From IMG/VR virus record IMGVR_UViG_2648501920_000012: a stretch of 4,936 nucleotides of DNA, one strand, 5' to 3'. Source of the stretch: a virus. Taxonomy: Duplodnaviria > Heunggongvirae > Uroviricota > Caudoviricetes. Under the pieces are notes generated by a model. The model saw nothing but the letters and a program-made list of their open reading frames with translations. It had not been told where the DNA came from and did not search any database. The translations under genes were made by a program, and so were the position numbers. Of this stretch, positions 1 to 4,936 are shown piece by piece (the stretch's first letter is position 1; every line of letters starts with the position of its first letter).

Positions 1-2514
1 ACCTGTAATGCGTACCTGACCACACAGCGCAAGGCGTGGGATGTGCTCAGTGATTTCTGCTCGGCGATGCGCTGTATGCCGGTATGGAACGGGCAGACGC
101 TGACGTTCGTGCAGGACCGACCATCAGATAAGGTGTGGACCTATAACCGCAGTAATGTGGTGATGCCGGATGATGGCGCGCCGTTCCGCTACAGCTTCAG
201 CGCCCTGAAGGACCGCCATAATGCCGTTGAGGTGAACTGGATTGACCCGGATAACGGCTGGGAGACGGCGACAGAGCTCGTGGAGGATACGCAGGCCATT
301 GCCCGTTACGGTCGTAATGTCACGAAGATGGATGCCTTTGGCTGTACCAGTCGGGGGCAGGCACACCGCGCCGGGCTGTGGCTGATTAAAACGGAACTGC
401 TGGAAACGCAGACCGTGGATTTCAGCGTCGGCGCAGAAGGGCTTCGCCATGTACCGGGCGATGTTATTGAAATCTGTGATGATGACTATGCCGGTATCAG
501 CACCGGTGGTCGTGTGCTGGCGGTGAACAGCCAGACCCGGACGCTGACGCTCGACCGTGAAATCACGCTGCCATCCTCCGGTACCACGCTGATAAGCCTG
601 GTTGACGGAAGTGGCAATCCGGTCAGCGTGGAGGTTCAGTCCGTCACCGACGGCGTGAAGGTAAAAGTGAGCCGTGTTCCTGACGGTGTTGCTGAATACA
701 GCGTATGGGGGCTGAAGCTGCCGACGCTGCGCCAGCGCCTGTTCCGCTGTGTGAGTATCCGGGAGAACGATGACGGTACGTATGCCATCACCGCCGTGCA
801 GCATGTACCGGAAAAAGAAGCCATCGTGGATAACGGGGCGCACTTTGACGGCGACCAGAGCGGCACGGTGAATGGTGTCACGCCGCCAGCGGTGCAGCAC
901 CTGACCGCCGAAGTCACCACAGACAGCGGGGAATATCAGGTGCTGGCGCGATGGGACACGCCGAAGGTGGTGAAGGGCGTGAGCTTCCTGCTTCGCCTTA
1001 CCGTGGCAGCGGACGACGGCAGTGAGCGGCTGGTCAGCATGGCCCGGACGACGGAAACCACATACCGCTTCAGGCAACTGGCGCTGGGGAACTACAGGCT
1101 GACAGTCCGGGCGGTAAATGCGTGGGGGCAGCAGGGCGATCCGGCATCGGTATCGTTCCGGATTGCCGCACCGGCAGCGCCGTCGCAGATTGAGCTGACA
1201 CCGGGGTATTTTCAGATAACCGCCACGCCCCATCTTGCCGTTTATGATCCGACGGTACAGTTTGAGTTCTGGTTCTCGGAAAAGCGGATTGCGGATATCA
1301 GGCAGGTTGAAACCACAGCCCGCTATCTTGGCACGGCGCTGTACTGGATAGCTGCCAGTATCAATATCAAACCGGGCCATGATTATTATTTTTACATCCG
1401 CAGTGTGAACACCGTTGGCAAATCGGCATTTGTGGAGGCTGTTGGCCAGCCGAGTGATGATGCATCCGGCTATCTGGATTTTTTCAAAGGCGAGATAGGG
1501 AAAAGCCATCTGGCTCAGGAGCTGTGGACGCAGATTGATAACGGTCAGCTTGCGCCTGACCTGGCTGAAATCAGGACGTCCATTACGGATGTCAGCAATG
1601 AAATCACGCAGACCGTCAATAAGAAACTGGAAGACCAGAGTGCGGCAATTCAGCAGATACAGAAGGTTCAGGTTGATACAAATAATAACCTGAACAGCAT
1701 GTGGGCTGTGAAGCTGCAGCAGATGCAGGACGGACGCCTTTATATCGCGGGTATTGGTGCCGGTATTGAGAACACCCCTGACGGCATGCAGAGTCAGGTG
1801 CTGCTGGCGGCGGACAGGATTGCGATGATTAATCCTGCGAATGGCAATACAAAGCCGATGTTTGTTGGGCAGGGCGATCAGATATTCATGAACGAAGTGT
1901 TCCTGAAATATCTGACGGCTCCCACCATTACCAGCGGTGGCAATCCCCCAACGTTTTCACTGACACCTGATGGTCGACTTTCTGCGAGAAATGCGGATAT
2001 CAGCGGTAACGTGAATGCGAACTCCGGGACGCTCAATAATGTCACGATTAACCAGAACTGTCGGATTCTGGGAAAACTGTCAGCTAACCAGATTGAAGGT
2101 GATATTGTCAAAACGGTGGGAAAAGCCTTTCCGAGAAATGGCAGTTATGCCAGCGGTACAATAACGGTCACTGTGTACGATGACCAGGCTTTTGACCGTC
2201 AGATAGTCGTCCCCCCCGTTCTGTTTCGCGGTGGTAAGCATGAAAACTTCAACAGCAACAACCAACAGTCATACTGGTATTCAACCTGTAAGCTGCAGGT
2301 GCTGAAGAACGGACAGGAAATCTTTCAGCAACCCGCGACGGATGTCAGCAGGGTATTTTCATCAGTCATTGATATGCCTGCCGGACACGGCCATGTCACC
2401 CTGACTTTCAATGTTTCTTCATATGGTGCAAATAACTGGACGCCAACGACCAGTATCAGCGACCTTCTTGTTGTCGTGATGAAGAAATCAACAGCCGGCA
2501 TCAGTATCAGTTGA
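1..2514 (+). CDS. J: Host specificity protein J (tail tip / central fibre), 5'-partial; the gene begins upstream of the window
   Basis: Frame 1 is open from base 1 to the TGA at 2512-2514 (the ORF track's M at 43 is internal). The translation [44 protein letters not shown]... matches the central part of lambda gpJ almost residue for residue as I recall it, through ...[21 protein letters not shown]. From about nt 1490 onward it is divergent but still alignable to the lambda J C-terminus (conserved blocks [43 protein letters not shown]). Codon usage is coherent over the whole length. Confidence 0.95.
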
Positions 2515-2533
2515 ATTTTAAAACCCAAATTCG

Positions 2534-2560
2534 GGCACCAGAAATGGTGCCTTTTTTATT
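2534..2560 (+). terminator. Candidate rho-independent terminator or attenuator between J and the fibre gene
   Basis: Perfect 6-bp inverted repeat GGCACC (2534-2539) / GGTGCC (2546-2551) around a 6-nt loop AGAAAT, followed directly by TTTTTTATT (2552-2560). It begins 20 nt after the J stop codon. Confidence 0.5.
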
Positions 2561-2563
2561 TGT

Positions 2564-2567
2564 GGAG
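2564..2567 (+). promoter_or_regulatory. Shine-Dalgarno (GGAG) for the tail fibre gene
   Basis: GGAG at 2564-2567, 5 nt upstream of the ATG at 2573. Confidence 0.5.
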
Positions 2568-2572
2568 TGAAT

Positions 2573-4594
2573 ATGGCAGTACAGATTTCAGGTGTGCTGA
2601 AAGACGGTGCAGGAAAACCGATACAGAACTGCACCATTCAGCTCAAAGCAAAACGTAACAGCACCACAGTTGTGGTGAACACGGTGGCCTCAGAAAATCC
2701 GGATGAAGCCGGACGTTACAGCATGGATGTTGAGTATGGCCAGTACAGCGTCGCCCTGCTGGTTGAAGGTTTTCCGCCTTCACATGCCGGGACCATCACC
2801 GTGTATGAGGATTCTAAGCCGGGGACATTGAATGATTTTCTGGGCGCTGCAACAGAAGATGATGTTTGTCCGGAGGCACTGTATCGTTTTGAAAAGATGG
2901 TGGAAGAGGCGGCACGCAACGCTGAAGCCGCCTCTCAGAGCGCAGCGGCAGCAAAGAAATCAGAAACAGCAGCGGCATCGTCCAGGAACGCGGCGAAAAC
3001 ATCAGAGACGAATGCAGGTAACAGCGCGAAAGCGGCAGCTTCTTCAAAAACAGCCGCACAAAACGCAGCAACAGCGGCAGAACGTTCAGAGACAAATGCC
3101 CGTGCGTCAGAAGAAGCCTCCGCAGACAGTGAAGAGGCTTCCCGCCGTAATGCAGAGTCAGCCGCTGAAAATGCCGGAGTCGCCACCACAAAAGCGCGGG
3201 AGGCCGCAGCAGACGCAACAAAGGCCGGGCAGAAAAAGGATGAGGCTCTGTCGGCAGCGACACGAGCTGAAAAGGCGGCAGACCGCGCAGAAGCCGCAGC
3301 GGAAGTGACTGCAGAGCCCTGTGCGAATATAGTGCCGCCGCTGCCTGATGTGTGGATACCGTTTAACGATTCACTGGATATGATTACGGGTTTTTCGCCA
3401 TCTTATAAAAAGATAGTTATTGGTGACGATGAAATAACAATGCCAGGCGACAAGATTGTTAAGTTTAAACGTGCTTCAACAGCAACGTATATTAATAAGT
3501 CCGGCCAACTCAAGCTTGCTGAAGTTGACGAACCGCGATTTGAGCGCGATGGCTTATTGATTGAAGGACAGAGGACAAATTATCTGAGGAACTCAAATAA
3601 ACCAGACTCATGGACTGTTCATTCCGCACTGAATAAAACATTTGGCACTGATAAACAGGGGTTCAATTATGCCACGGTGACACCCACGGAAAGTATAGTG
3701 GGAACAACAGGTGGCTATACTGTGCATGGTGTGGTTGCAGCAGACAGATTCCCGCTGGCAAGTGGTGAATGTTTCACTTTTTCGTGCCGGGTTAAAGGCG
3801 CTAAAGCACGATGCAGGTTAAGAGTTTCAGTTATTATTGGTGGAACAGATACCTTCTCTGCTGACTCTTATCTTGATCTGGATACCCGGATCGCAACAGT
3901 AAGCGGTAATACATCCCTTATAACAGCCAAAGCTGAACAACAGGGCGAGTGGACCTACTATGAGGCCACTTATACAGCTAATACGGACATTGATACCGTT
4001 AACTGTGCTTTTTATATGACAAATAAAATAAGTAATGAGCCATTCTATGATGACTCAACATTAACCATGACGACGCCGCAAATTGAACTGGGCAATACGG
4101 CATCGTCATTTATTGTAACTACAATGCCAACAACACGCGCAAGTGATGTAGTTACTATCCCATCGCAGAATAACCTGTCAACACGGCCTTTTACGGTATT
4201 GTGCGAAGTAAGCAGGAACTGGAGTACACCGCCCAATGTTGCGCCAAGGATATTTGATGTTGGAGGGCACAGTATTGATGATAATTATTTATCGCTGGGG
4301 TTTGTTGCAACAGGAAAGATAAGCGCCAACGTAGGAATGGTTCAGCCACAAATTGCCTCAGATGGAGAAAGGTTCATTGTGGGTGTGAGAGCTAAATCTG
4401 ATTTATCAGTAAATGCAATATGCAATGGTAATTATACAACAAACCTTAATGGTAAAATATTTGGAGTTACAGCAACATCGTACCGGTTTGGTGGGCAGAC
4501 CGCAGCAGGAACGCGTCATTTGTTTGGACACATCAGAAATTTCAGAGTCTGGTTTAAAGAATTAAATGACAGGCAAATCAAGGAGGCAGTATGA
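2573..4594 (+). CDS. stf: Side tail fibre protein, lambda Stf-like N-terminus with a divergent distal (probable receptor-binding) domain; 673 aa
   Basis: ATG at 2573 is preferred over the in-frame GTG at 2567 used by the ORF track, because of the GGAG spacing and because lambda Stf begins MAVKISGVLKDG. The first ~100 residues (MAVQISGVLKDGAGKPIQNCTIQLKAKRNSTTVVVNTVASENPDEAGRYSMDVEYGQYSVALLVEGFPPSHAGTITVYEDSKPGTLNDFL) are near-identical to lambda Stf from memory. An Ala/Ser/Glu-rich low-complexity shaft follows (SETNA-type repeats), then a ~430-aa AT-rich C-terminal region I cannot match to lambda Stf. Stop TGA at 4592-4594. Confidence 0.9.
   Translation: MAVQISGVLKDGAGKPIQNCTIQLKAKRNSTTVVVNTVASENPDEAGRYSMDVEYGQYSVALLVEGFPPSHAGTITVYEDSKPGTLNDFLGAATEDDVCPEALYRFEKMVEEAARNAEAASQSAAAAKKSETAAASSRNAAKTSETNAGNSAKAAASSKTAAQNAATAAERSETNARASEEASADSEEASRRNAESAAENAGVATTKAREAAADATKAGQKKDEALSAATRAEKAADRAEAAAEVTAEPCANIVPPLPDVWIPFNDSLDMITGFSPSYKKIVIGDDEITMPGDKIVKFKRASTATYINKSGQLKLAEVDEPRFERDGLLIEGQRTNYLRNSNKPDSWTVHSALNKTFGTDKQGFNYATVTPTESIVGTTGGYTVHGVVAADRFPLASGECFTFSCRVKGAKARCRLRVSVIIGGTDTFSADSYLDLDTRIATVSGNTSLITAKAEQQGEWTYYEATYTANTDIDTVNCAFYMTNKISNEPFYDDSTLTMTTPQIELGNTASSFIVTTMPTTRASDVVTIPSQNNLSTRPFTVLCEVSRNWSTPPNVAPRIFDVGGHSIDDNYLSLGFVATGKISANVGMVQPQIASDGERFIVGVRAKSDLSVNAICNGNYTTNLNGKIFGVTATSYRFGGQTAAGTRHLFGHIRNFRVWFKELNDRQIKEAV
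2930..3300 (+). repeat. Low-complexity Ala/Ser/Glu-rich repeat region inside the fibre gene (shaft segment)
   Basis: Translation is dominated by degenerate repeated units (AAASSRNAAKTSETNAGNSAKAAASSKTAAQNAATAAERSETNARASEEA...). GCN-rich DNA of this kind produces long spurious ORFs in other frames and on the opposite strand (2832..3308 +, 2935..3189 -, 2814..3263 -). Confidence 0.6.
4579..4585 (+). promoter_or_regulatory. Strong Shine-Dalgarno (AAGGAGG) for the small ORF downstream of the fibre gene
   Basis: AAGGAGG lies inside the last codons of stf, a few nt upstream of the ATG at 4591; that ATG overlaps the stf stop as ATGA (4591-4594). Confidence 0.55.
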
Positions 4595-4693
4595 AAGATT
4601 TAACTTTGAAATTTCCTGGTAACAGAGAGTTTAAATCCTTCCTGTCATCTCTTGACTGGGAGGAGGATGAAGACCTCCAGAATAAACTGTTAG

Positions 4694-4716
<23 letters not shown>
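4591..4716 (+). pseudogene. Small ORF translationally coupled to the fibre gene, truncated by IS5; the native part is 4591-4693 (34 codons), the last 7 codons and the stop are read from the IS5 left end
   Basis: ATG at 4591 overlaps the stf stop (ATGA) and follows a strong SD. Translation is MKDLTLKFPGNREFKSFLSSLDWEEDEDLQNKLL, then GKVRTSP* encoded by the IS5 terminal sequence GGAAGGTGCGAACAAGTCCCTGA. I do not recognise the family; by position it could be a fibre assembly/chaperone gene or the first cargo gene. Confidence 0.6.

Positions 4717-4936
<220 letters not shown>

Follow-up and report, generated by a model that had tools for sequence, protein, structure and literature searches.

The window analysed here, a stretch of 4,936 nucleotides, very likely carries the 3′ two thirds of the J gene of a phage-21-like E. 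coli lambdoid prophage, in which a lambda-like body is combined with the distal fibre of phage 21 and whose product would bind LamB. Comparison with phage 21 identifies the divergent distal module as an already known and already studied phage-21 allele. Over nt 1490-2514 the DNA is 97.7% identical to that of phage 21, the encoded part of J differs from phage 21 J (OL657228, CPT_21_21) at 13 of 837 residues, and the last 174 residues (J 987-1160) are identical to those of the GenBank phage 21 protein. Within the distal module the differences amount to five of 355 residues, namely N816D, T825S, G853D, V912I and K986R. In a diversity panel of 13 lambdoid J genes taken from phage records, the window residues at 816, 853 and 912 are those common to the other 21-type members, the serine at 825 occurs in the window alone, and both lysine and arginine are found at 986. 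With an 81-residue shaft, a receptor-binding domain of the 21 type and near-identity to the OL657228 protein, the window J is a phage-21-type allele.

Gene J and its domain organization

The 3′ part of gene J, which encodes the central tail fibre or tip attachment protein, occupies positions 1-2514 of the plus strand, as judged from the open reading frame and its translation; all features of J described below lie on the same strand. The left end of the window cuts the reading frame, which is open throughout nt 1-2514 and ends in a TGA stop at 2512-2514, and the encoded product corresponds to residues 324-1160 of a 1160-residue lambdoid J. Open reading frames on the minus strand also occur inside J. 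Five Pfam J domains are matched in the same order as in lambda and all above the curated cut-offs (Phage-tail_3, Ig_J, Ig_J_second, Phage_Tail_Tip and Ig_GpJ_C; PF13550 with an E-value of 1.8e-43, PF24421 with 2.4e-41, PF24489 with 1.5e-39, PF09327 with 2.4e-31 and PF12421 with 1.1e-37). The domain set, the position of the gene and the structural homology all place the protein among the lambdoid tip attachment proteins or central tail fibres.

The lambda-like part of the protein, comprising the hub domains, FNIII-1 and most of FNIII-2, is encoded by nt 1-1439, which are 96% identical to lambda J in DNA and 97% in protein. It is followed at nt 1456-1698 by an alpha-helical shaft (J 809-889), which the alignments to lambda and to the panel define as a long form of 81 residues, compared with 53 in lambda. 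The central straight fibre, a beta prism formed by J 890-1000, extends over nt 1699-2031 and is delimited by the panel comparison and by the Phage_Tail_Tip match, with the PDB entries 8xck and 8xcj also aligning here. Finally, the receptor-binding domain region (J 1001-1160; nt 2032-2511) is identical in amino acid sequence to that of phage 21 and is recognized by Ig_GpJ_C (1.1e-37) and by the PDB entries 9wca and 8xcj. In a phmmer search of the PDB with the distal part of J as a query, the matches were 9wca (E = 8.7e-151), 8xcj and 8xck (1.1e-101) and 8iyk (2.6e-100). The alignments lie chiefly in query residues 62-355, equivalent to J 866-1160, and so take in the prism and the receptor-binding domain as well as the last part of the shaft; a separate match involves the first 31 residues of the query. 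An Rfam search of the window gave no match.

Nucleotides 1-4693 are 100% identical to phage-21-like phages of the genus Jouyvirus (Lambda_2E9, 1H12, ev245 and others), and the same sequence is also present in prophages of many E. coli chromosomes. In Lambda_2E9 and E. coli EC1, two relatives with 100% identity, the genes run in the order tape-measure, M, L, K, I, J and stf, of which the window itself contains J followed by stf.

Receptor specificity

The native receptor of phage 21 is LamB (bioRxiv 10.1101/2023.04.13.536812; PMC11336670), and phi21 is listed among the LamB phages (PMC12803456). When new receptor use by phage 21 was monitored experimentally on delta-lamB lawns, lysing phages emerged only later, and the use of OmpC and then of OmpF arose through mutations in J (bioRxiv 10.1101/2023.04.13.536812; PMC11336670). 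The virion encoded by the window would, by analogy with phage 21, bind LamB. The initial annotation had reasoned from the divergent C-terminal part of J to a receptor specificity other than that of lambda, but this is contradicted, since the closest characterised relative, the LamB-using phage 21, has an identical receptor-binding domain.

Use of a receptor other than LamB, such as OmpC, nevertheless deserves consideration, although it is unlikely. The receptor-binding domain is just 50% identical to that of lambda, and the A8 domain, which is 82% identical to that of the window and identical to that of PhiR70_1, delivers DNA via OmpC in delta-lamB cells (PMC11338833). Moreover, I1025T was the first OmpC-enabling change in phage 21 and suffices as a single substitution (PMC11336670). 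The window, however, retains Ile1025 (nt 2104-2106) rather than the OmpC-enabling threonine, its J is identical to that of GenBank phage 21 over residues 987-1160 with the five of 355 distal differences all upstream, and at three of these positions (816, 853 and 912) it carries the residue of the other 21-type panel members. Phage 21 itself is natively a LamB user that has gained other receptors only by mutation. The window domain is also not of an OmpC type, being 46% identical to that of phage 434, 82% to that of A8 and 100% to that of phage 21. The lambda and phage 21 domains are 50% identical and both serve for LamB binding, whereas the 82% identical A8 domain uses OmpC, so divergence from lambda does not by itself imply a different receptor here, and distance from lambda should be treated with caution, as among lambdoid J proteins it is no predictor of the receptor. 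Specificity within the 21-type receptor-binding-domain family is labile and easily changed, because the 82% identical A8 uses OmpC and one substitution gives phage 21 access to OmpC.

A further point in favour of another receptor concerns Glu1071 (nt 2242-2244), which like Ile1025 lies inside the receptor-binding domain. The laboratory stock of phage 21 used in the LamB work carries the change G18903A relative to GenBank (bioRxiv 10.1101/2023.04.13.536812), which translates as E1071K in the receptor-binding domain, while both the window and GenBank phage 21 have the glutamate. The phage 21 protein that was tested for LamB, with Lys1071, is therefore one residue off the receptor-binding domain of the window. 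There is a small chance that the E1071 domain, together with the five shaft and prism differences, shifts the receptor range relative to the K1071 stock; for example, the E1071 form might already use OmpC besides LamB. Residue 1071 is located within a KHENFNS segment, and Stx-type alleles have a glutamine there. Literature searches found no receptor data for the 100% identical phages (Jouyvirus, 1H12, ev017, PhiR47) and no paper describing the PDB entries 9wca and 9wcb, the 'A8 gpJ 713' structures of an OmpC-binding chimera.

Position of the identity break

The divergence was located by protein and DNA alignment to lambda J (NC_001416) and by a maximum chi-square change-point test with 500 permutations. 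Protein identity to lambda is 97.3% over J 324-805 (hub domains, FNIII-1 and FNIII-2), then falls to 41% over J 806-889 with the helical shaft, where a 28-residue gap opens on the lambda side, and is 56% at the beginning of the fibre prism (J 890-930), 81% in a conserved island of the prism (J 931-1000; nt 1822-2031) and 50% in the receptor-binding domain (J 1001-1160). Overall, the distal 355 residues are approximately 56% identical to lambda. The initial annotation had judged J to be nearly identical to lambda up to about nt 1490 and then to depart sharply from it. The near-identity and the sharp departure are both borne out, but the break lies at nt 1439, some 50 nt upstream of the proposed position: the chi-square reaches a maximum of 438 after nt 1439, compared with 19 as the highest value in the permutations (n = 500), and the DNA mismatch to lambda is 4.0% to the left of this point and 36.9% to the right. 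The C-terminal 250 residues are 58.8% identical to lambda, well apart from the identity of more than 90% that would speak against divergence of this part.

The mosaic join relative to both lambda and 434 thus falls at nt 1439/1440, at J residues 803-806 approximately, on the boundary between FNIII-2 and the alpha-helical shaft. The lambda shaft comprises residues 809-861 (PMC11101478), and cryo-EM of the tail tip complex resolved gpJ over residues 1-807 (PMC12617516). The unit exchanged with respect to lambda is the whole distal fibre, with the break exactly at the FNIII-2/shaft boundary.

Base composition of gene J

The divergent part had also been described as more AT-rich than the upstream part, which is correct as to the change in composition but not as to its place. 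The GC content of J drops from 0.609 to 0.495 at nt 1206, so that the profile is not flat but steps, with a chi-square of 33 at nt 1206/1207 compared with a permutation maximum of 18. The change point is situated near the FNIII-1/FNIII-2 boundary (the Pfam Ig_J match ends at window residue 391 and that of Ig_J_second begins at residue 393, and the change point is within about ten codons of these). The identity break follows 233 nt further downstream, the DNA around the change point still being 92-96% identical to lambda, and change-point tests carried out in the window, lambda, 434 and phage 21 each place the GC step at one shared codon, that of J residue 726. The step does not mark the join, because all of these phages have it at this codon; as a marker of the join it was rejected, its position being contradictory.

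It is accordingly very unlikely that the lower GC content reflects DNA recently gained at the join from an AT-richer donor. Such an origin would fit the drop from 0.609 to 0.495 within J and the GC content of the 21-type distal module, which at 0.494 is slightly below the 0.541 of lambda, but it would place the change point at nt 1439 rather than in the lambda-like stretch around nt 1206 and would leave the same step in lambda, 434 and phage 21 unaccounted for. The genome of phage 21 has a GC content of 51% (PMC9119081), to which the 0.49 of distal J is close, and it is the upstream portion of J that is GC-rich. From the compared sequences, the lower distal GC content is best read as an older compositional feature that is common to these J genes and begins at FNIII-2.

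Reassortment of the distal modules

The proposal of a recombinational join within the gene is well supported by identity at third codon positions, which breaks down where protein identity does, from approximately 0.87-0.93 to 0.14-0.6, and by the discordant combinations of modules found among the phages of the panel. The long form of the shaft is present in the window, phage 21, PhiR55_1, PhiR70_1 and the Stx phages, and the short form in lambda, 434, mEp460, 2B8 and PhiR47_1, while at least five types of receptor-binding domain can be distinguished (21, A8, PhiR55, lambda and 434). PhiR55_1 is 98-100% identical to the window in the body, shaft and prism up to nt 2099 and then continues with a receptor-binding domain of 68% identity, PhiR70_1 breaks from the window at nt 1937 with an A8-type domain beyond, and the Stx2 phage 1717 combines a body of 74% identity with a shaft of 99%. 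In the same Stx2 phage (L013), a 21-type block of FNIII-2, the shaft and the first part of the prism is 88-97% identical over approximately nt 1190-1920 of the window, and J outside it 57-90%; the left edge of the block falls together with the GC change point common to the J genes compared.

The exchange points in J, at approximately nt 1190-1206, 1440, 1930 and 2100, are at or near domain boundaries, and one of them falls in the conserved island, near lambda residue 964, where the junction was made in engineered gpJ chimeras (PMC11338833). Since the shaft, prism and receptor-binding domain reassort at domain boundaries across the 13-phage panel, recombination is supported and simple faster divergence is ruled out. 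That the identity step is only apparent, with no recombination and a distal part evolving faster under diversifying selection, is scarcely credible: phage fibre receptor-binding regions are described as subject to such selection (Maddamsetti et al. 2018, as cited in PMC11336670), but the step is abrupt, taking place within a few tens of bases, third-position identity falls at the same site, and the modules are discordant both in 1717 (74% body, 99% shaft) and in PhiR55_1 (99% shaft, 68% receptor-binding domain).

The shaft extension and the proposed working of the fibre

The initial annotation described 61 residues of extra sequence, corresponding to nt 1516-1698. Of these, 28 (nt 1546-1629) are truly extra, having no lambda counterpart in the alignment to lambda and the 13-phage panel, whereas the remainder aligns weakly with the lambda shaft. 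The 28 residues are absent in lambda, 434, mEp460, 2B8 and PhiR47_1 and present in 8 of the 13 panel phages. A local duplication was sought as their source and no meaningful repeats were found. The extra length equals four times seven residues, although no exact insertion of four heptads is claimed; when the shaft was tested for heptad register, the best hydrophobic fraction at the a and d positions was 0.43, with no clean coiled-coil signal. A single-sequence AlphaFold2 model of the distal 356 residues has a pLDDT of 43, with helices at J 813-877 predicted only at low confidence. In lambda, triggering involves flipping and refolding of the shaft (PMC11101478), and, separately from any effect on receptor range and with an equally small chance, the 28-residue polymorphism might tune the reach or the triggering of the fibre.

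The J protein is a modular trimer, in which a conserved tail-tip body of the hub domains and two FNIII domains bears an exchangeable distal fibre made up of the alpha-helical shaft, the beta-prism central straight fibre and the Ig-like receptor-binding domain. Loops of the trimeric receptor-binding domain may insert into the maltoporin LamB, and the binding may be relayed via the prism to the shaft as in lambda. The shaft would then unfold, the FNIII domains would be released and the tail tip would open, again following lambda (PMC11101478). This relay is carried over by analogy from lambda, the shaft of which is 28 residues shorter.

The region downstream of J

The gap between J and stf (nt 2515-2572) contains a hairpin, a T-run and a ribosome binding site and, as in phage 21, no lom. 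The terminator-like hairpin (2533-2552) together with the T-run spans nt 2533-2562 of the plus strand, a site for which the phage 21 annotation gives a terminator. The J-stf position is occupied by lom in lambda, in 434 and in the eight remaining annotated phages of the panel. The side tail fibre gene stf follows at nt 2573-4594 on the plus strand and encodes a protein of 673 residues, as identified by Pfam phage_tail_N (2.8e-67), by the annotation in relatives and by BLASTP. The gene is a mosaic, residues 1-158 of the product being 73% identical to lambda orf-401 and the whole protein just 63% to phage 21 Stf by BLASTP; the specificity of the side fibre probably differs from those of both lambda and phage 21. 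A weak, below-cutoff match to the CBM_4_9 carbohydrate-binding domain covers Stf residues 444-485, and nt 2900-3300 encode a low-complexity stretch of Stf rich in Ala, Ser and Glu, with an AT skew of up to 0.56 and a GC content of approximately 0.58.

An IS5 element is present with its left end at nt 4690-4936, which match an IS5 copy of E. coli EC1 at 99.6% identity. The element is inserted in a 93-residue ORF located after stf, of which 41 residues are left (4591-4716), and the matches to phages extend no further than nt 4693 because IS5 begins at 4690. In Lambda_2E9, phage 21 and the E. coli EC1 prophage, the genes of the iron/manganese transporter sitABCD are found just downstream of the tail-fibre genes (L002, 11267-14716; L003, 7306-8732; L004, 9466-11892). 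The prophage NC-SV, located at the phage 21 site, lowers lamB expression via an sRNA (PMC12803456).

Prevalence of the allele

Of 5426 complete E. coli genomes, 1659 contain the 21-type distal module and 95 the lambda distal module at a query coverage of at least 80%, with the five matches listed for the lambda type all being laboratory strains. The unusual allele is that of lambda and not the 21 type. Strains with the allele of the window include E. coli CFSAN061770 and EC1. A protein homologue search with the distal module was filled by identical partial J fragments from E. coli, and so informs on prevalence and not on diversity. Among phages, a complete distal module is present in roughly 260 J genes. 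As a discovery, the finding carries little weight: the allele belongs to classical phage 21, whose receptor use and evolution have already been investigated, and E. coli prophages carry it widely. What the panel does provide is a clear picture of where exchange takes place in J, namely at domain boundaries and at the junction region chosen for the gpJ chimeras.

Comparison with known systems

The closest counterpart of the window J is that of phage 21, with which it has in common the length of 1160 residues, the long shaft and a receptor-binding domain identical from residue 987 onwards, as well as the order of J, terminator and stf without lom. It differs from it in five conservative substitutions located in the shaft and prism, and the next gene, stf, is only 63% identical. 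With lambda gpJ (P03749; PDB 8IYK, 8XCK and, with LamB, 8XCJ) the window protein shares the order of hub domains, FNIII-1, FNIII-2, helical shaft, straight fibre and Ig-like receptor-binding domain and a 97% identical body, in contrast to the distal 355 residues of approximately 56% identity, with the lambda shaft shorter by 28 residues and the receptor-binding domain 50% identical.

The A8 gpJ chimera (PDB 9wca/9wcb; PMC11338833) and its naturally occurring relatives PhiR70_1 and YYZ-2008 belong to the same family of receptor-binding domains as the window, with 82% identity and the same C-terminal motif, but the window domain is of the 21 type, and A8 delivers via OmpC in delta-lamB cells. 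The J protein of phage 434, which uses OmpC, is 98% identical in the body and likewise breaks from the window at nt 1439; unlike the window J, it continues with a short lambda-type shaft and a receptor-binding domain of 46% identity.
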